A DNA stretch of 44,955 nt from contig CBDVDR010000023.1 of assembly GCA_965372795.1 (NCBI GenBank), positions 1-44,955 on the forward strand, in the 5' to 3' direction. This document shows positions 2,846 through 37,907 of this stretch, in pieces (the stretch's first letter is position 1; each line of letters opens with the position of its first letter). The notes under the pieces are model-generated. The model ran no database searches. It saw only the letters and a program-made list of their open reading frames with translations, and was not told the origin of the DNA. Source of the DNA: an uncultured bacterium. GTDB lineage: Bacteria > Zixibacteria > MSB-5A5 > GN15 > FEB-12. A program made the translations under genes and the position numbers.

Positions 2846-3277
2846 GTGAAAATTCTCGGACGCCATTTAATAGTCGAACTTGCCGACTGCAATAATGAAA
2901 TGCTGAATAATTTGGAGATACTTGAAAAACATATGAATGAGGCTGTCCGTAAAAGCGGCGCTACTATTGTCCGTTCAGTTTTTCATCGTTATAACCCCCA
3001 GGGTGTTTCCGGTGTTGTTGTTATTGCTGAATCCCATATCTCTATTCATACCTGGCCCGAATACGGCTATGCTGCCGTTGATTTCTTTACCTGTGGCGAT
3101 ACGGTTGATCCTTATAAAGCTTTTGAATATATGAAAGAGCAACTTGAAGCCAAATCAGCCGATGTCAAAGAATTGAAACGCGGTATACCATCGGTCATTG
3201 ATGTCACCATTGATCATAAACCTATGAATAACCATGACAGCTTATCCACCCAGGCAGGGCAGCGTGGTTTATTATGA
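2846..3277 (+). CDS. speD: S-adenosylmethionine decarboxylase proenzyme (class 1B, SpeH type)
   Basis: LGRHLIVE, PQGVSGVVVIAESHISIHTWPEYGYAAVDFFTCG with the ESH self-cleavage site; AAGGAGG RBS before GTG. Confidence 0.96.
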   Translation: MKILGRHLIVELADCNNEMLNNLEILEKHMNEAVRKSGATIVRSVFHRYNPQGVSGVVVIAESHISIHTWPEYGYAAVDFFTCGDTVDPYKAFEYMKEQLEAKSADVKELKRGIPSVIDVTIDHKPMNNHDSLSTQAGQRGLL

Positions 3278-4443
3278 CTCATTCATTTGATATATTATCA
3301 GTAATTCAGAAAACAATCCCATGCGGGATTGACTCATCATATCTCGAAGAGATATTCAGAAAAACAGATTTGGACAGCCCTCTGCTTTTATTGTCCCGTT
3401 CTGCAGTTGGAAGAAATTATCAGGCTCTTAAATCCGCCCTTCCCCGCGTCAATATTCATTATGCCATAAAACCGAATAATCACGAAACGATTATCGAAGA
3501 AGTTTATCGTTCCGGTGGAAATTTTGATGTCTGTTCAGCCGGAGAAATAGATTTAGTTTTAAAAACCGGTATCAATCCGGCGAGCCTTATCCATTCTCAC
3601 CCGATTAAATCAATTCGCGAATTTGATCTTGCCGTTGGAAAAGGGATCCGCACTTTTGTCGTTGATAATTTTGATGAAGTTAAAAAATTATCCCGCTATA
3701 CCAATGAAAAATTGAAAATTCTTATTCGCTTCAGAATTAACTCCAATACTCAGGCGGTTGTTAACCTGCAATACAAATTTGGCTGTACCACCGATGAGGT
3801 GCTTGATCTCGCCCGGCAAATTAAACAAAGAGGCCATGAATATCACGGGCTCTGTTTTCATATCGGTTCCCAGTGTACTACTCCGCATAATTATGTCGAA
3901 GCTATTACCACTGCTCATAATCTGATTCAACAGCTCGACCAGTCCGGTTTTGATACTCAAATGCTCGACATTGGCGGTGGCTTTCCGGTTGAATATATTG
4001 AAGCTATCCCTCCGATTGAAGAATTTTGTAAACCGATCAATGAAGCTTTAACAAAACATATTCGTCCGGGTGTCAAAGTAGTCAGCGAACCGGGAAGGTT
4101 TATTGCCGCTACTCCGGTGATATTGGTTTGTACGGTCATTGGTAAATCTATCAGAGATGGCAAGTACTGGTACTATCTTGATGATGGTCTCTATTCGACT
4201 TTCTCAGGTATTTTATATGATAGTTGCCAATATCCGGTTATCACTAACAAAGTAGGCGATCAAAAGCTATCGGTTTTATCAGGACCGACCTGTGATTCTT
4301 TTGATGTTATGTATGACGGCTTAATGATCCCCGAACATGAAGTTGGTGACAGAATGATCTTCACCTCAACCGGAGCTTACTGCTCGGTATCAGGCTCAAA
4401 TTTTAATGCTTTAAAAAGACCCCAGTATCAGGTTATTGATTGA
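3274..4443 (+). CDS. Fold-III PLP ornithine (or lysine/ornithine) decarboxylase
   Basis: HYAIKPN (PLP lysine), FHIGSQ, LDIGGGFP, EPGRF, GPTCDS, GAY. GILYD carries Asp at the specificity position as in ODC/L-ODC. ATGA overlap with speD. Confidence 0.9.
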   Translation: MTHSFDILSVIQKTIPCGIDSSYLEEIFRKTDLDSPLLLLSRSAVGRNYQALKSALPRVNIHYAIKPNNHETIIEEVYRSGGNFDVCSAGEIDLVLKTGINPASLIHSHPIKSIREFDLAVGKGIRTFVVDNFDEVKKLSRYTNEKLKILIRFRINSNTQAVVNLQYKFGCTTDEVLDLARQIKQRGHEYHGLCFHIGSQCTTPHNYVEAITTAHNLIQQLDQSGFDTQMLDIGGGFPVEYIEAIPPIEEFCKPINEALTKHIRPGVKVVSEPGRFIAATPVILVCTVIGKSIRDGKYWYYLDDGLYSTFSGILYDSCQYPVITNKVGDQKLSVLSGPTCDSFDVMYDGLMIPEHEVGDRMIFTSTGAYCSVSGSNFNALKRPQYQVID

Positions 4444-4450
4444 GGATATA

Positions 4451-5341
4451 ATGAATAAGAAAAATAAAGATGAAAATTACATTGTCGAAGAAAGCATGAG
4501 CGATCTTTGGAATGTTTGGTACAGCGAGCTTCATGACGGTCAATCAGGGTTAACCCTTAAGATTGATAAAATTCACGAATCAACAAAATCTGAATTTCAA
4601 CGGATTGAAGTTATTGAAAATAAAGATTTCGGCAAGATGCTGGTTCTTTATGGCTCACTCATGGTATGTGACAACGACAATAACGCCTACAACGAAATGA
4701 TCTCGCATGTCCCTCTGTTTGTTCATCCAAACCCCAAAAATGCTTTGATTATCGGCGGCGGTGATTGCGGAGCCTTAACCGAGATGACCAAACATCCCGA
4801 ACTTGAAAAAATCACAATGTGTGAAATTGATGAAAAGGTCGTTGAAATTTCCAAAAAACATTTCCCCTACCTTACCGAAGGAACCAAAGATCCCCGAGCC
4901 AATCTTATTTTTGATGACGGTAAAAAATATATCGAAGATGCTAATGAAAAATTTGATCTGATAACCTTAGACCTCTCTGACCCGATTGGACCGGCAGCCG
5001 ATCTTTTTCAAAAGGAATTTCACCAGAAAGTACATGATACTTTAAACGATGATGGCATTATGGTTGCTCAAACCGAATCGCCATTCCTGAACAAAAAGAC
5101 CGTATCAAAATTGTTCGGTAATCTTAAAGAAATATTCCCGATTGTTAAGATGTACACCTGCTTTATGCCGATCTATCCATCCGGATATTGGTCGTTTGCT
5201 TTTTGCAGCAAAAAATACGACCCCATTGTTGATTTCCGTCAGGACAAATATAATAAGTTGTCATTGAAAACAAAATATTACAACGACGATGTTCACTTAG
5301 GAGCTTTCAGGCTCCCCCAATTTGTTAAAGAGCTTATATAA
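4451..5341 (+). CDS. speE: Polyamine aminopropyltransferase (spermidine synthase)
   Basis: YNEMISHVPL, LIIGGGDCG, CEIDE, DLITLDLSDP, MPIYPSGYW; ATG at 4451 follows GAGG. Confidence 0.95.
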   Translation: MNKKNKDENYIVEESMSDLWNVWYSELHDGQSGLTLKIDKIHESTKSEFQRIEVIENKDFGKMLVLYGSLMVCDNDNNAYNEMISHVPLFVHPNPKNALIIGGGDCGALTEMTKHPELEKITMCEIDEKVVEISKKHFPYLTEGTKDPRANLIFDDGKKYIEDANEKFDLITLDLSDPIGPAADLFQKEFHQKVHDTLNDDGIMVAQTESPFLNKKTVSKLFGNLKEIFPIVKMYTCFMPIYPSGYWSFAFCSKKYDPIVDFRQDKYNKLSLKTKYYNDDVHLGAFRLPQFVKELI

Positions 5342-5346
5342 ATCAT

Positions 5347-5374
5347 AACCGGCAGTCACTCTGCCGGTTTTTTT
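5347..5374 (+). terminator. Intrinsic terminator after speE
   Basis: AACCGGCAG-TCACT-CTGCCGGTT followed by a T run. Confidence 0.85.
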
Positions 5375-5389
5375 ATAGAAAGGAAACTA

Positions 5390-6085
5390 TTGAAAACAAT
5401 TTATATAATCCAAAACCACCCGTTTGAAAACGCCGGAACTATAATAGATTATCTGACTGAAAAAAAATATCAATTCGAGGTCATACACTTATATCTGGAT
5501 GAACCATTGCCCTTGATGGATGATGTTTCGACTATTATAAATCTTGGTTGTCCGACCTCAATAACTGAATATCGAACTCATGAATTTTTAAAAAAACTTT
5601 ATATTTTCACATCAAAGATAATCCGTAACAAAATCCCGTATCTTGGCATCTGTTTTGGCGCCCAGATGCTGGCTCATATTTTAGGTGCCAAAGTTGCACC
5701 GAATGATGTCAAAGAGATCGGCAGCTACAACGTCACTCTCACTGATACCGGTAAAAACGATTTAATATTTAAGGGATTCCCCGAATCTTTTCCGGTTTTT
5801 CACTGGCATGGCGACACCTTTAAAATCCCTGATGGCAACTCGCTGCTCGGTGAAGGCATTGACTGTAAAAATCAGGCTTTCCGTTCAGGAAATGCTGTTG
5901 GGATTCAATTCCATCTTGAAGTTACACCAGAAGAAGTTGAATCATGGTGTGATATTTATGTCGAAGAACTTTTTGAAACGAACAAATCTCAGAAAGAAAT
6001 CATTGCTTCGGCTAAAGAACATGCAAAAAATTATAAAAAACTTCAATACCGGTTTCTAGACAATTTCTTCGAAAATTTCTCATAA
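5390..6085 (+). CDS. Class I glutamine amidotransferase (stand-alone, GMP-synthase-like)
   Basis: LGICFGAQML nucleophile elbow, FHWHGDTF, QFHLE catalytic His/Glu. Confidence 0.9.
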   Translation: MKTIYIIQNHPFENAGTIIDYLTEKKYQFEVIHLYLDEPLPLMDDVSTIINLGCPTSITEYRTHEFLKKLYIFTSKIIRNKIPYLGICFGAQMLAHILGAKVAPNDVKEIGSYNVTLTDTGKNDLIFKGFPESFPVFHWHGDTFKIPDGNSLLGEGIDCKNQAFRSGNAVGIQFHLEVTPEEVESWCDIYVEELFETNKSQKEIIASAKEHAKNYKKLQYRFLDNFFENFS

Positions 6086-28175: not shown

Positions 28176-28442
28176 TTATCCCTCTTTAATTAATCTATAT
28201 GCATAGATTCTGACTACAATTTGAATACGGCATGAATTTGGGAAAGTTTCATTGAAATTTAAAGAACGCAATATCTGTTGCTGATTTGCTTGAAAACCAT
28301 TGCTCTGTCATAGTTTTTTAATATATGAACAACCTGTGATGGTTTTTTAAAAAGGGATTCCTTTTTTTTATTTTAAATTTGTATAATTTTGTATATTATC
28401 TATCGACTTGAATAATTTAAATACTTGCTACAGGAGTGATTG

Positions 28443-29855
28443 ATGACCTTAGAAAAATTAAAGAAATTTGCAAAAGATAATAAAGCTGAATTTATTGATC
28501 TGAAACTCTGTGATCTGATCGGTTTGTGGCATCATATAACTCTCCCCGTATCAGCTCTAAAAGCAGAACTTTTCAAAACCGGTGTCGGTGTGGATGGTTC
28601 TTCTCTGCCGGGCTTTTCATCAATTGAAAGAGGGGATATGCTGATCATCCCGGATCCTACAACAGTGTTCATGGATCCGTTCTTTGAACGTCCGACCATG
28701 TCCTTGCTTGGCGACATTATGGATGCCACCGGTGACATATCTCCATACTCACGAAATCCACGGAGAGTTGCAGCGGATACTGAAAAATATTTGAAAAAGA
28801 CCATCAAAGGTGCAAATGTAATTTTTGGACCGGAATTCGAATTCTATGTCTTTGATAAAGTAAATTACTATCAGGGTGCCGAGAGTGCCTTTTATGATCT
28901 TGACTCGATGGAAGCGGAATGGGGCGCCAGCCGGGATGATGAAAACCTTGGCTATAAAATCCCTCATAAAAAAGGCTACCATGCCGCTCCACCGATGGAT
29001 CGTACTTTTAATCTTCGGTCCCAGATTTCTTCGATGCTTGCCGATGTAGGAATCGGACTAAAATACCATCACCATGAAGTCGGCGGCGGCGGACAGCATG
29101 AAATTGAAATCGAGTTTGACACTATGAAAATCATGGCTGACAAGTCTATGCTGGTCAAATACATTATCAAAAATGAAGCGTTCCGGAATAAAAAATCTGC
29201 CACCTTTATGCCGAAACCGTTATTCAACGAACCCGGAAGCGGACTGCACTGCCATCAATACTTAGCTGATAAAAACGGCTCTCTCTTTTATGATAAAAAC
29301 GGACCGGCTCGATTTTCCAAAATAGGACTCTACTATATCGGCGGACTTCTAAAACATGCCGATTCACTGCTTGCCTTCACCAACCCCTCAACCAATTCGT
29401 TTAAACGACTTATCCCGGGATTTGAAGCTCCGGTTGCCGGTACCTATTCGGTTGGAAATCGAACCGCCTGTATCCGTATTCCCGGCTATCAACGTGACGA
29501 AACAACCATGCGCCTTGAGTTCCGTCCGCCGGATGGCACCATGAATACCTACCTTGCCTTTTCAGCTATGGTAATGGCGGGTCTTGACGGCATCAAAAAT
29601 AAAATCGACCCGGGCATGCCGCTCAATAAAAATCTCGATAAATTATCCAAAGAGGAACTGTCGAAGATCCACCAACTCCCGACCTCTTTGAACAAAGCCC
29701 TCAACGCCCTGGAAAATGATTATGAGTATTTGTTGCATGGCGGAGTCTTCACCGAAGATTTAATTGAGAACTGGGTGAAACTTAAACGAGCCGAAGTTGC
29801 AGAAATCAGAGTTCGTCCTACCCCTTATGAATTTGAACTCTATTACGATCTATAA
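28443..29855 (+). CDS. glnA: Glutamine synthetase type I
   Basis: DGSS, GPEFEFY, HHHEVG, ATFMPKP, GSGLHCH, NSFKRL.PGFEAP, NRTACIRIP, RLEFR, PYEFELYY. Confidence 0.98.
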   Translation: MTLEKLKKFAKDNKAEFIDLKLCDLIGLWHHITLPVSALKAELFKTGVGVDGSSLPGFSSIERGDMLIIPDPTTVFMDPFFERPTMSLLGDIMDATGDISPYSRNPRRVAADTEKYLKKTIKGANVIFGPEFEFYVFDKVNYYQGAESAFYDLDSMEAEWGASRDDENLGYKIPHKKGYHAAPPMDRTFNLRSQISSMLADVGIGLKYHHHEVGGGGQHEIEIEFDTMKIMADKSMLVKYIIKNEAFRNKKSATFMPKPLFNEPGSGLHCHQYLADKNGSLFYDKNGPARFSKIGLYYIGGLLKHADSLLAFTNPSTNSFKRLIPGFEAPVAGTYSVGNRTACIRIPGYQRDETTMRLEFRPPDGTMNTYLAFSAMVMAGLDGIKNKIDPGMPLNKNLDKLSKEELSKIHQLPTSLNKALNALENDYEYLLHGGVFTEDLIENWVKLKRAEVAEIRVRPTPYEFELYYDL

Positions 29856-33869: not shown

Positions 33870-34006
33870 AAAACATTCGAAGTATGCGCCAGAGAAAACA
33901 CATGAAGTGTGCAAAGACATCACTATGTCAAAAGTGAGGAAACGAACCCATTTTGGTTGTAATATTAAATCACAGATGAAGTTACAAGGGAAATTTGATT
34001 CAACAA

Positions 34007-34032
34007 TGGATTCCCGCCTTCGCGGGAATGAC
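34007..34032. repeat. REP/dRS3-like palindrome
   Basis: TGGATTCCCGCCTTCGCGGGAATGAC fits the ATTCCC-N8-GGGAAT pattern. Confidence 0.8.
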
Positions 34033-34356
34033 AATTCTGTTCGTAATGTTAGGGTGCCCCACTCCGCCAATGGCGGACGGTGGGATAAGTAAGAAACATA
34101 AATTTGTATGAAAACTAAAAAATGAGCAAACGAACCCATTTCGTTGTAATATTAAATTACAGAAGAAGTTACAAGGAAATAAAAGAAAGAGTTACAAAGA
34201 TAAACATGATAAATATAAACCACACAAAGTATGCGAAGTGTGCGTCAGGAATAAACACACGAAGTGTGGCAGGTCTCGGGGAGACTAAATCTACGGAATA
34301 TTAAATCAAATGATAAGTGTCAAAACTTCGTCAGGAATAGACACCCGAAGGGTGGG

Positions 34357-35736
34357 TTATTTGTGGACTTTTTTGATGAACTCCTCGACTTCGGGAATGC
34401 CACCCTGATAAATCAGATAACCATTATATGGTTCGCGTTTGGTTATATCCCGGCCAATCGGAGTCAACATAATCTCCCGTACCTTCTCAAGGTCATCAGT
34501 CTGCCCCAGTGCCCAGCCAAGTTTCACATAGGCAACCTCGGGAAGCATATTTTCACAGGGGATGATTCCCTTCGCCATAAGATCGCGTCCGGTATCGTAT
34601 ACGAACATGTGGACATAACCCCAAAGAGTCTGCACCGTCATATAAATAGCCACGCCCTTTTCAGCCGCCCGTTCAATAGCCGGATAAACTGTTTTATTGA
34701 CATGACCCAGCCCCGTGCCGGCAATGATAATACCTTTGTAACCGTTATCCACAAGCGAGTCGATAACATCGGGCATCATATTAGGGTAGTAATAAATCAA
34801 GCCAATCTTCTCTTCGAATACCGGAGTTATTTTTACTTTGGTGTCTTTACGGCGTCTGTTGTAATCCGGGTTGAGATGCGTAATTTTGTCTCGGTCAATC
34901 ATTGCCAGAGGAATATCGCCAATGGTTCTAAAAGTCGAACGATACGAAGAATGCATCTTGCGCACCCTCGTTCCGGTATGCAACAGCCCGTATTCATCAG
35001 AGGTTGGTCCGAACATACAAACCATGACCTCGGCAATGTCAGATTCGGCGGCGGCTTTGGTAGCATGGATCAAATTCAGAGCCGCATCCGATGACGGCCG
35101 GTCAGAAGAACGCTGGGAACCTACCAGTACGATTGGAACGGGTGAGTCCTGGATCATGTATGACAAGGCTCCGGCGGTGTGATGCATGGTGTCGGTGCCA
35201 TGACCGATAACGATGCCGTCGATTCCGTTTTCGATTTCTTTGCCGATTGCTTTGGCAAGGGCGATATATTGCTGGGGTCCCATATTTTCTGAGAAGACTG
35301 CAAATATTTTTTCAGTGGTCAGATTACAAATATCAGCCAGTTCCGGAACAGCGCCATAAAGTTCACCGGGGGAAAAGGCCGGAATTACGGCTCCGGTTCG
35401 GTAGTCAAGACGCGAGGCGATGGTTCCGCCGGTTCCGAACAGTTTGACATTTGGTTGACCATCAGTAAACGGGAATTCTTTTTCAGGGATTTTATAATTA
35501 GCTTCTTTGGTTCCCCCCACAGAAACTTCTTTGATGGTGCTTATTTCAAGTCCGACATTGTAGCCGGTGTGCAGTTTTAAAACGATATGCCGATCATCAT
35601 CATTTTCAGAACGCGGAAGGATAATACCTTTGAATTCACCGCGGGTCGTTTTAAAAGTCGCTTCACTCCAGACCGGAGCGTTTTTCGATTTTAAAACTTC
35701 AAGTGCTTTACCTTTGTATCCTTTGAAATCAGCCAC
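34357..35736 (-). CDS. gatD: Glu-tRNA(Gln) amidotransferase subunit D (archaeal type)
   Basis: GatD-type N-terminal domain (GIILPRSE..DDRHIVLKLHTGYNVG) fused to a type I asparaginase fold with GTGGTIASRLDYRTGAV, HGTDTM, GSQRSSDRPSSDA, RKMHSS, MLPEVAYVKL; AAGGAGG RBS, GTG start. Confidence 0.95.
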   Translation of the reverse strand: MADFKGYKGKALEVLKSKNAPVWSEATFKTTRGEFKGIILPRSENDDDRHIVLKLHTGYNVGLEISTIKEVSVGGTKEANYKIPEKEFPFTDGQPNVKLFGTGGTIASRLDYRTGAVIPAFSPGELYGAVPELADICNLTTEKIFAVFSENMGPQQYIALAKAIGKEIENGIDGIVIGHGTDTMHHTAGALSYMIQDSPVPIVLVGSQRSSDRPSSDAALNLIHATKAAAESDIAEVMVCMFGPTSDEYGLLHTGTRVRKMHSSYRSTFRTIGDIPLAMIDRDKITHLNPDYNRRRKDTKVKITPVFEEKIGLIYYYPNMMPDVIDSLVDNGYKGIIIAGTGLGHVNKTVYPAIERAAEKGVAIYMTVQTLWGYVHMFVYDTGRDLMAKGIIPCENMLPEVAYVKLGWALGQTDDLEKVREIMLTPIGRDITKREPYNGYLIYQGGIPEVEEFIKKVHK

Positions 35737-37705
35737 AGGACACCTCCTTTACGATAGCATCATAAAGTTTTCCAATAGCAATGTTTCCGATGGCGGTGCT
35801 GCAAAGCTGTCCGGTGACCCATCTGGCACAGGCGGTTTGGCTGGTATTGTATTTCCGTCTGTTTTTTCGGAACAGTTTGATCAGTTCAGGGATTTTTTTA
35901 ATAATTTCTTTTTCAGTCAATTTTTTGTAACCGCATTCAATTAGAGCTTTTTCAAAATCTTCATCAGGATATTCATGCACAATCGGGAGGAGAATTAAGA
36001 ATATATCTTTATCGAGTTTTTTGTTTTCGATAAATTCGGCTAACTTATATAAATAGCCATAATCTTTGGTATTAAAAACACGAAGGGTCCCTTCAATGTT
36101 TTTGAGGTTATGCCCGAAGAGACAACCGACAAATTTTGGGTCCCATTTTAAATCATTCACAATTTTTTCAATAATCGGCACTAAATTTCTACGAAGGATA
36201 TAACGATGAGTATCAATCGGGATTTTCCATTCATCCAACAGGGTCATCCGGGTTGAAACTTCAGCCGGAAGATCAGCACTGCAGCGAGCGACTAATTCAT
36301 TGTCGAGTTTCATCGGGGCAGTGTCAGTATCGGGATACATCCGGTCGGCTCCGGGAAGCACCCGTTCAAATATAGTTGTGCCATCGGGGAACGATTTTCT
36401 GGTTTCATTCGGCACGCCATCAAATGCCAACCGTCCGCGTTCTTCGATAGTCTCAAGCGCCATCGGGATATCTTTTTCAGGTCCCCAGATAATTAAGACG
36501 CCGTCATCATCAGAAGCCTGAACAAGGTCGCGAAGAGTTGAAGATATATTAGAGATTGTCATATTTGGTTTTTCAATACAAGCGATAACTTTTAGACGTT
36601 GAGAAATTTCATCGGCAAAAATCTGTCCCGGTTGTGTGAAGTATGACAGGGTCTCAGAGAAGCCCGGCATTTTCACCACATAAACCTTGTCATTATCAGG
36701 AGTTTTGATTTTTAATTCAGGATAAATCTCAGGGTTAATTTGTTCGGAAGAAATTTTCCATTGGTCCGGATCGGAGATTTTCTGATTAAGCAGCTCTTTA
36801 ATATTCAGCAGAGCTTTTTGGCGGAAGGCTTCGATGTGAGTCAGTTCTGCAATCCAGCTAATATGGGCGACACCTTTTATCTCTACCCGGGTTCCACCGG
36901 TAATACTGACATTAACATCCTGCCTTGCCGCTCCGATACCGGTGCGGACTTTTCCAGAACTACGGGCGAGGTAGCTGAGATACTGTCCGGCTTCGACAGC
37001 TTCATCCGGATTTAACATATGCGGATAAGTTACCATCTCAATCAGAGGCATTCCCAGACGGTCGGTCATATAGGTACGATTGTGACCAATATCAGAAACT
37101 TCGCGACAGGAATCCTCCTCGATAGAAATTTGAATAATGCCGACTTTTTTATTTTTTAATGGAATTTCGCCATCAATCCCAAGTATTCCGGTTCGTTGAA
37201 AACCGGTGGGGATGCTTCCATCAAGATATTGTTTACGGGCAATATGAAGTTCGCCGACAATTTTTGTTTTTAAAAGGAAAGCAATTACAAGAGCCTTTTC
37301 GAGGGCTTCCCGATCCATCAGAAAAGGAGGTGTGTCGTCAATTTCATAAGTACAGGCAGTTTTATTTTTTAACCGATAAGTAATATTTTTTTTTGTTTTG
37401 AATTCCATCAGGGCTGTGCCGTCATATTCACCAAGCTCACTTAAAGTAGGACGCATATGTCGAATTACCTCAGCATCATAATCATCCGCCTGCTGAAATA
37501 TTCCGGCAGGACAGCGGCAAAATAATTTTTGTTTGGTTAGAAGCTGTTGATGGATTTCCAAGCCGCACATAAATCCGAGATCGGTATATGTTTTTTGGGT
37601 CGCTTCGTTACGGGGTAAATATCCTAATTCTTTTTTTGATATTTCAGTTTTTTCAATTATTGAAGAATCTTCACTAATCTTAGAATTCCCAAGTTCTAAA
37701 GCCAT
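35729..37705 (-). CDS. gatE: Glu-tRNA(Gln) amidotransferase subunit E (archaeal type)
   Basis: GLEIHQQL..KLFC.CP, RPTLSELGEYD, DGSIPTGFQRT, EEDSCR, DRLGMPLIE, RQDVNVSI.GG.RVEIKGV, GVPNETR, LPGADRMYPDTD; 658 aa with a central insertion domain; lacks the GatB YFYPD motif. Confidence 0.95.
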   Translation of the reverse strand: MALELGNSKISEDSSIIEKTEISKKELGYLPRNEATQKTYTDLGFMCGLEIHQQLLTKQKLFCRCPAGIFQQADDYDAEVIRHMRPTLSELGEYDGTALMEFKTKKNITYRLKNKTACTYEIDDTPPFLMDREALEKALVIAFLLKTKIVGELHIARKQYLDGSIPTGFQRTGILGIDGEIPLKNKKVGIIQISIEEDSCREVSDIGHNRTYMTDRLGMPLIEMVTYPHMLNPDEAVEAGQYLSYLARSSGKVRTGIGAARQDVNVSITGGTRVEIKGVAHISWIAELTHIEAFRQKALLNIKELLNQKISDPDQWKISSEQINPEIYPELKIKTPDNDKVYVVKMPGFSETLSYFTQPGQIFADEISQRLKVIACIEKPNMTISNISSTLRDLVQASDDDGVLIIWGPEKDIPMALETIEERGRLAFDGVPNETRKSFPDGTTIFERVLPGADRMYPDTDTAPMKLDNELVARCSADLPAEVSTRMTLLDEWKIPIDTHRYILRRNLVPIIEKIVNDLKWDPKFVGCLFGHNLKNIEGTLRVFNTKDYGYLYKLAEFIENKKLDKDIFLILLPIVHEYPDEDFEKALIECGYKKLTEKEIIKKIPELIKLFRKNRRKYNTSQTACARWVTGQLCSTAIGNIAIGKLYDAIVKEVSCG

Positions 37706-37907
37706 TCAGTTTCCTATCTCAACTAACAGATTTCCGTTTCAAATCGTGAAAATAGTAACACAAAACCGGCACATTTTCAAGTGATTCCTGCTATTTATGG
37801 CTGTTTTTTAATGTTTCTTAACAGGTTATATTATAGCGATTTATGTAATAAATTTCAAGATTTTGCATTATGACCTGCTCTCCCTATGATTTACTGTAAA
37901 ATGAAGT

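Follow-up and report, generated by a model that had tools for sequence, protein, structure and literature searches.

The whole 45-kb contig analyzed here (CBDVDR010000023.1, 44,955 nucleotides, referred to as the window) comes from an uncultured Zixibacteria bacterium whose assembly (GCA_965372795.1, our G000) comprises 3.35 Mb in 69 contigs and is 98.65% complete and 0.18% contaminated. Profile and structure-sequence comparisons confirmed that the window carries an intact operon for a predicted archaeal-type GatDE, a two-subunit tRNA-dependent amidotransferase, in a bacterial chromosome. The enzyme is probably an active Glu-tRNA(Gln) amidotransferase that has been retuned to bacterial tRNA-Gln and works in parallel to glutaminyl-tRNA synthetase (GlnRS). 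The operon consists of the following elements.

35729-37705, minus strand: gatE, open reading frame (ORF) of 658 aa with an ATG start; tRNA-dependent kinase/transamidase subunit.
34357-35736, minus strand: gatD, ORF of 459 aa with a GTG start; asparaginase-type glutaminase subunit with a GatD_N domain.
35729..35749, minus strand: gatD GTG start overlapping the gatE TGA stop within GTGGCTGA; translational coupling signal, read directly.
35743-35749, minus strand: AAGGAGG ribosome-binding site with a 6-nt spacer to the gatD GTG.

Both genes are intact, and direct reading of the sequence places their 8-bp minus-strand overlap at the junction. The original prediction, made from the sequence alone, had described two full-length ORFs (gatE then gatD) with this overlap and ribosome-binding site, and the ORF list and sequence agree with it. 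The signature motifs it had named were all found in the translations: GLEIHQQL at residue 48, RPTLSELGE at 85, GFQRT at 168, EEDSCR at 196, PLIEMV at 220, RQDVNVSI at 261, ETRKS at 434 and RMYPDTD at 455 of GatE, and GTGGTIAS at 101, HGTDTM at 179, SDRPSSD at 211 and RKMHS at 259 of GatD. Its assignment of the pair to GatD and GatE over AnsA and GatB is likewise supported by the hidden Markov model (HMM) scores and structure-sequence matches that follow.

The HMM scores lay well outside the range of chance. GatD scored 512 bits on NF003217 and 511 bits on TIGR02153, exceeding both cut-offs (310 and 324). It also scored 389 bits on the type I asparaginase model TIGR00519 (subfamily cut-off 260.5), a family with which the fold is shared, and this was about 120 bits below the equivalog scores. 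Its Pfam domains were GatD_N (PF18195), Asparaginase (PF00710) and Asparaginase_C (PF17763); the presence of GatD_N and the coupling of the gene to gatE argue against a free type I L-asparaginase (AnsA). Among solved structures, GatD matched 1zq1_A with 407 bits and 2d6f_A with 400 bits, and any asparaginase with at most 137 bits. GatE exceeded the cut-off of TIGR00134 (377.8 bits, cut-off 319.55), narrowly missed that of NF003107 (446.7 bits, cut-off 456) and fell well below that of the GatB model TIGR00133 (121 vs 314.8 bits). It matched the structures 2d6f_C (E=3e-80) and 1zq1_C (E=6e-78), with GatB chains reaching only 1e-8 to 1e-14. The 277-position Pfam GatB_N profile was stretched across GatE residues 46-472; the stretch interrupting it aligned continuously to 2d6f_C and 1zq1_C, and GatB models covered only about residues 112-309. 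By these alignments, GatE carries a predicted GatE-specific insertion domain that GatB lacks. The YqeY-like C-terminal tail domain of GatE reads the tRNA D-loop. In the window protein this tail gave no match to Pfam PF02637 (GatB_Yqey), the domain lying below the Pfam threshold, and a precomputed PF02637 match was present in a minority of close bacterial GatE homologues. The alignment to 1zq1_C nonetheless reached residue 635, and the NF003107 match reached position 609 of 630.

The active sites of both subunits are conserved. PMC2330236 gives H15, E157 and E184 as the Mg ligands of Methanothermobacter thermautotrophicus GatE, as well as the identities of the catalytic Thr and the Thr-Asp-Lys residues of GatD. 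In a structure-sequence alignment the three ligands correspond to H52, E196 and E223 of the window GatE, which did not vary in any of 202 bacterial GatE sequences. T105, T181, D182 and K260 of GatD, located by aligning the motifs to 1zq1_A, were invariant in 77 of 77 bacterial GatD sequences. The catalytic Thr of GatD was picked using the E. coli numbering.

Relatives of this gene pair were found in many bacteria. A scan of one genome per prokaryotic species returned at least 599 candidate stretches, at least 581 of which encoded a relative; these bacterial stretches came from many phyla. The best 80 of these were 49-68% identical and were labelled Bacteroidales, Zixibacteria, Ignavibacteriales, Aminicenantes/Acidobacteriota, Cloacimonadota, Calditrichota or Omnitrophota. 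Among the matches listed, the closest labelled records were Candidatus Zixiibacteriota, and Marinifilum fragile, Ancylomarina sp. and Clostridium sp. CF012 were cultured carriers. A search of a protein collection gave at least 8000 protein clusters at E<=1e-20, of which the best 120 were all 55-65% identical, with several from bacterial taxa already named GatE by NCBI. The rarity of bacterial GatDE implied by the original prediction is therefore contradicted: the gene pair is very common, and the window GatDE is one unexceptional representative of a very large clade of bacterial enzymes. Within the host's order, sampled as 61 genomes including G000, GatE was found in 42 (38 above cut-off and four with fragments) and GatD in 40, all inside the GatE-bearing set.

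Across 91 gatDE loci, only gatE (89 loci) and gatD (77) recurred, and the next family, found in 13 loci, reflects ordinary synteny. The two genes were adjacent in 68 of the 76 loci holding both. In three loci labelled Bacteroidales or Lentimicrobiaceae (L035, L090 and L093), gatE and gatD were separated by an inserted gene for an M28/M20 peptidase (about 412 aa). Family f4 of the order kept both genes, and these were unlinked in six of seven GatDE genomes (G039, G045, G048, G051, G055 and G059; loci L024, L030 and L031), lying on different contigs or about 1.8 Mb apart.

In order to place the bacterial proteins relative to archaeal ones, we built trees of GatE, the subunit covered by the phylogeny. 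A first FastTree phylogeny of 156 sequences (37 labelled bacterial and 119 of 150 representatives of 560-800 aa) split at 100% support into a group with all 37 labelled bacteria and a second group. Names were obtained for one of 14 sequences asked in the bacterial group (CSSED10-310 bacterium) and for six of 13 in the second, and these six were all archaeal (Heimdall-, Thor- and Odinarchaeota, Lokiarchaeum ossiferum, Thermoprotei and Parvarchaeota); the groups were named after this tree had been seen. Rooted trees were then built from 78 rows, consisting of 30 bacterial and 40 archaeal sequences chosen to span the first tree and eight GatB sequences from relatives. Bacterial GatE was monophyletic in every analysis (100/100), which speaks against the recent transfer that the original prediction had set against a bacterial clade. 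The branches closest to bacterial GatE were from Asgard archaea; Heimdall was the sister lineage, supported at 99/96 by the careful IQ-TREE run and at 94 by FastTree. A nesting of bacterial GatE within Asgard was rejected as a firm claim, a tree constrained to archaeal monophyly being 168.6 log-likelihood (lnL) units better than the quick tree. Compared with the careful free tree, a tree constrained to archaeal monophyly also gained 13.3 lnL units (p-AU 0.65), and archaeal monophyly was present in 0 of 200 ultrafast bootstrap trees in a bootstrap that had not settled. Bacterial GatE is thus a single clade close to Asgard, and the trees support no one position of the root.

Bacterial and archaeal-group GatE differed by only two near-fixed residues (D124 vs E and T214 vs L, in 72 vs 84 sequences), of which T214 lies beside the DRLG/E223 motif; 56 columns of the same alignment were at least 97% identical overall. 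The f4 sequences of G045, G051 and G055 fell outside the tight main bacterial clade, in a different bacterial subclade, which suggests a second acquisition or a replacement within the order.

The aminoacylation gene set of the host was surveyed by profile search. GatB was absent besides GatE itself, and GatA was absent as well, which contradicts a GatCAB identity. GlnRS (749.8 bits), asparaginyl-tRNA synthetase (AsnRS; 604 bits, plus an AsnA-like paralogue), a bacterial-type aspartyl-tRNA synthetase (AspRS), the asparagine synthetase AsnB (544 bits) and a single copy of bacterial-type glutamyl-tRNA synthetase (GluRS; 496 bits) were all present. The AsnRS paralogue, a 338-aa protein (G000:C3:22908-23852) without the anticodon-binding part, matched the asnS model over positions 134-451 (156 bits) and resembles the archaeal-type, AsnA-like asparagine synthetase. 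Because GlnRS and AsnRS are present, GatDE is formally redundant in this genome. It is not the sole route to Gln-tRNA(Gln), and the proposal that an archaeal-style route is the lineage's means of making Gln-tRNA was not upheld.

Only two tRNA-Gln genes were found by ARAGORN, one of CUG and one of UUG type, at G000:C1:70363-70434 and G000:C10:102874-102949. They are of very different types, and both have U1-A72 and G73. The CUG-type gene has a tRNA-Glu-like D-arm with a 7-nt D-loop, and the UUG-type gene has a larger D-loop but otherwise resembles the E. coli tRNA-Gln. The tRNA-Asn of the host also has U1-A72. Neither tRNA-Gln gene has the archaeal A1-U72 substrate pair, and because both have U1-A72, a bacterial GatDE acting on them must accept this pair rather than A1-U72. 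Reading of A1-U72 characterizes the archaeal enzyme that has been studied, and its host, rather than the protein fold as such. A GatDE-specific tRNA-Gln was considered and rejected, as the CUG type was found in 51 and the UUG type in 58 of the 61 order genomes, in all classes with or without GatDE. Of the genome features to which the original prediction had pointed, glnS was found, gatCAB was absent, GluRS was bacterial-type and the 1-72 pair was U1-A72; the archaeal pair, and with it the co-adapted archaeal-style tRNA-Gln that had been proposed, did not materialize.

Presence of GlnRS, GatCAB and GatDE across the order was as follows.

GlnRS and GatDE: 26 genomes.
GlnRS, GatCAB and GatDE: 15 genomes.
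GatCAB only: 10 genomes.
GlnRS only: 5 genomes (completeness 73-97%).
GlnRS and GatCAB: 2 genomes.
GatCAB and GatDE: 1 genome (G016, 82% complete).
None of the three: 2 genomes (G046 and G049, 76% and 68% complete).

GlnRS was thus present in 41 of the 42 GatDE genomes. Among the 48 genomes bearing GlnRS, GatDE was found in 41 vs GatCAB in 17. One or both amidotransferases were kept in 43 of these 48 although AsnRS was present in 58 of the 61 genomes, which points to a need for an amidotransferase. The combination of GlnRS and GatDE is the usual bacterial state, which would not be expected were amidotransferases there only to make up for a missing synthetase. Both were also kept in G000 and in a second genome of the same genus (G001). 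In this case, G001 has GatCAB and no AsnRS match at E<=1e-70, and G000 is the reverse, so that GatCAB and AsnRS look like alternates in this genus while GatDE is constant.

The pairing extends beyond the order. The cross-phylum sample consisted of 50 of 80 loci (all 39 not labelled Bacteroidota and 11 Bacteroidota), two of which were duplicate order genomes. GlnRS was present in 45 of these 50 GatDE genomes, and AsnRS in 48 of 50 once G126 and G157 had been put in place of the two duplicates. Five genomes had no GlnRS: G092 contains a GatB fragment, G086 is also missing GluRS and so looks incomplete, the G098 assembly is just 1.5 Mb, G108 is a metagenome-assembled genome (MAG) of unestablished completeness with one GluRS, and the last is the Clostridiaceae genome G065.

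G065 is the single exception to the usual state of GlnRS with GatDE. It is near-complete: the assembly totals 5.4 Mb, of which the contig carrying gatE accounts for 5.27 Mb. Its best match to the GlnRS model (39 bits) was a cross-hit on GluRS, no GatB was found, and the best match to the GatA model reached 167 bits vs a cut-off of 481. No route to Gln-tRNA(Gln) other than GatDE is visible in this genome. Two GluRS genes were found (511 and 284 bits), and the second (G065:C2:1001767-1003311), a divergent 555-aa frame, may be a tRNA-Gln-specific GluRS2. This arrangement is similar to the Helicobacter pylori-type GluRS2/GatCAB route, in which a dedicated second GluRS and an amidotransferase act with no GlnRS, with GatDE as the amidotransferase in G065. 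The likeness is limited to G065, as the window genome combines one GluRS with GlnRS. Of the 61 genomes in the G065 family, 59 were scored, and GatE was found in only three of them, none with a GatB cross-hit. Forty-one others had a GatB cross-hit, and the 15 with neither all had GlnRS. GlnRS was present together with GatDE in G126, G157 and Clostridium sp. CF012, that is, in three of four Clostridiaceae GatDE carriers.

GluRS is the enzyme that would have to supply the substrate. The single-copy GluRS of the host is vertically inherited, its 58-sequence tree following the four families of the order. The GluRS of the 10 relatives with GatCAB only must be non-discriminating, and no column in an alignment of 59 sequences separated these from GluRS of the host's class; by sequence, the host enzyme looks the same as the non-discriminating enzymes of its relatives. 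Testing discrimination by the position equivalent to Thermus thermophilus Arg358 was uninformative, as all 59 sequences, whatever their class, have Arg here, including the 10 obligately non-discriminating ones, and caution about this type of prediction has been expressed (PMC3927822). In many relatives, most of them from family f3 (for example G038:C110, G041:C21, G044:C24, G050:C2, G052:C1 and G058:C11), GluRS and GlnRS are encoded immediately next to each other, and in G000 the two genes lie apart on contigs C2 and C18.

The window enzyme can be compared with two known systems. With archaeal GatDE (M. thermautotrophicus 2D6F and Pyrococcus abyssi 1ZQ1) it shares the two-subunit make-up, a GatD with an N-domain and asparaginase fold, a GatE with predicted cradle, GatE-specific insertion and helical domains, the H/E/E Mg ligands, and the GatD Thr and Thr-Asp-Lys residues. 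Unlike archaeal GatDE, it occurs in a bacterium with GlnRS, AsnRS, bacterial-type GluRS and U1-A72 rather than A1-U72 tRNA-Gln, its GatE belongs to a separate bacterial clade with D124 and T214 in place of E and L, and its tail domain falls below the Pfam threshold. Bacterial GatCAB (Staphylococcus aureus 2DF4 and Thermotoga maritima 3AL0) performs the same chemistry on U1-A72 tRNAs in bacteria, and either alternates or coexists with GatDE in this order. In contrast to the window enzyme, its GatB has no insertion domain, and its glutaminase is the amidase GatA with GatC, not an asparaginase. GatCAB persists beside direct enzymes in some GlnRS-bearing bacteria (PMC4206432).

On the reading that we consider probable, the single bacterial-type GluRS would still charge part of the tRNA-Gln with glutamate. 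GatE would phosphorylate the glutamyl side chain of this Glu-tRNA(Gln), and GatD would free ammonia from Gln or Asn and channel it through a tunnel to GatE, yielding Gln-tRNA(Gln). Because this route would run beside GlnRS and appears to have outlived GatCAB in the host genome, GatDE may serve as a second supply of Gln-tRNA and/or as a sink that keeps mischarged Glu-tRNA(Gln) out of translation. The Clostridiaceae genome G065, with GatDE and neither GlnRS nor GatCAB, argues for a Glu-tRNA(Gln) amidotransferase function on bacterial tRNA. The invariant catalytic residues speak for activity, and the spread of GatDE over the order, with both genes retained even where they are unlinked, speaks for selection. 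Several observations weigh against this reading. GlnRS and AsnRS make GatDE formally dispensable in the host, and GatDE is never the sole route within the order, where the 11 GlnRS-less genomes bearing an amidotransferase all have GatCAB and only G016 adds GatDE. The five GlnRS-only genomes lack both amidotransferases, so either the need for one is not absolute or their assemblies have gaps. The sole-route case comes from one near-complete genome, G065, plus the MAG G108, and the other three Clostridiaceae GatDE genomes all have GlnRS. GluRS discrimination is not predictable from sequence, given the invariant Arg358 position, and the host GluRS is bacterial-type while archaeal GatE docks archaeal-type GluRS through its insertion domain, as described in PMC2943598. 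We also put forward, only tentatively and as a less likely possibility, that bacterial GatDE is selected specifically in GlnRS-acquiring bacteria whose GluRS discriminates incompletely. Rather than standing in for GatCAB, it would there be the sink of choice for Glu-tRNA(Gln), or would use Asn to provide Gln-tRNA from a second source, with the clade perhaps deriving from one old transfer from an Asgard-like archaeon.

The same pairing with GlnRS, seen in 41 of the 42 GatDE genomes of the order, in 45 of the 50 from the cross-phylum sample and in three of four from Clostridiaceae, could instead mean that GatDE took on another substrate, or a non-translational amidation, that is possible only once GlnRS supplies Gln-tRNA. 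The lack of any order genome with GatDE as its sole route, the absence of an archaeal-type tRNA-Gln in the host and a GatE tail too diverged for a GatB_Yqey match would all fit such a role. We consider it unlikely, since the kinase and glutaminase residues are all invariant, the whole alignment shows no more than two near-fixed differences between bacterial and archaeal GatE, none of the 91 loci holds a conserved neighbour pointing to another pathway, and G065 appears to need GatDE for Gln-tRNA. An Asp-tRNA(Asn) or dual amidotransferase for tRNA-dependent asparagine synthesis, the purpose for which GatCAB is used in Thermus and Deinococcus, is an improbable alternative. GatCAB is missing from the host, and its tRNA-Asn and tRNA-Gln share U1-A72, so a retuned enzyme could accept both. 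However, AsnRS is present in the host, in 58 of 61 order genomes and in 48 of 50 GatDE genomes across phyla, the host has both AsnB and the AsnA-like paralogue, and G001, which has no AsnRS match, keeps GatCAB despite having GatDE; the cross-phylum AsnRS count and the G001 case argue against an Asn-related role. PMC2943598 further reports that modelling predicts a clash between the GatE insertion domain and AspRS, and that M. thermautotrophicus GatDE has no detectable association with the non-discriminating AspRS (ND-AspRS).

The G+C content is elevated over gatED (0.43-0.46 at 34001-37000, vs a contig mean of 0.377), as it might be if the operon had recently been imported from an archaeon, were a chimera of binning or assembly, or were a functionless relic in decay. 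Such an origin is largely refuted and hardly credible, as other conserved window genes reach similar values (0.44 at 1-2 kb and 29-30 kb), the window GatE pairs with a Zixibacteria-labelled sequence at 100% support within a bacterial clade of its own, and the ORFs are intact with invariant active sites. A contig of the same genus holds gatE-gatD orthologues with 77-84% amino-acid identity and, rearranged, a nearby transglutaminase-like gene, and the GatDE-bearing genomes of the order include the single-contig assemblies G013, G039 and G052. Because 42 of the 61 order genomes carry GatDE and the same-genus orthologues are this similar, the operon appears to be a long-standing resident of the bacterial lineage, neither chimera nor recent import.

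GatDE has been treated as exclusively archaeal. Reviews of 2021 (PMC8007984) and 2022 (PMC9499178) state that it is found only in archaea, and a 2008 review calls it an 'archaeal signature protein' (PMC2330236). No description of bacterial GatDE was found in the full-text literature searched, in which PMC13047044 names GatDE only in its reference list. The bacterial clade is thus annotated in databases and undescribed in the literature searched, and models of the evolution of Gln-tRNA synthesis have been built on the archaea-only statement. The window alone matters little, being one more intact copy of a gene pair labelled in thousands of bacteria. Bench work would be best directed at two of the observations, the strong pairing with GlnRS and the one Clostridiaceae genome that has GatDE only, and the existing cultured carriers make the role of the enzyme, and the reading of U1-A72 by GatE, directly testable.

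Two candidate regulatory elements flank the operon.

37830..37858, minus strand: candidate sigma-70-like promoter, TTGAAA, 17 nt, TATAAT, matching 11 of 12 consensus positions, about 125 nt upstream of the gatE start.
34256..34268, minus strand: candidate terminator-like hairpin, some 90 nt beyond the gatD stop.

Both are weak evidence, since neither class of site exceeded background in the region (13 promoter-type consensus sites vs 9.9 +/- 3.3 in shuffles, and six terminator-like hairpins vs 3.8 +/- 2.2). The rest of the contig encodes bacterial housekeeping functions, including ValRS, SerRS, TsaB/TsaE, AccD, a sigma-54 activator, polyamine genes and GlnA, and the window annotation bears out the bacterial surroundings (sigma-54 activator, accD, tsaBE) noted in the original prediction. 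A type I glutamine synthetase (Gln-synt_C, 371 bits) is encoded at 28440-29855 on the plus strand, about 4.5 kb from gatD and on the opposite strand, and is not coupled to the operon. It was not a recurrent neighbour within 6 kb, as gatE and gatD were the only families found in at least three of the 91 loci that include window genes. A row of polyamine genes at 2846-6085 (plus strand) encodes an AdoMet decarboxylase, an Orn/Arg/DAP-type decarboxylase and a spermidine synthase, followed by a class I glutamine amidotransferase. A tRNA-Met at positions 1-71 of the window, truncated by the contig start (c[-3,71]), was reported by the whole-genome ARAGORN run and not by the window-only scan. Elsewhere in the genome, a tRNA-SeC gene is located at G000:C19:18166-18259.

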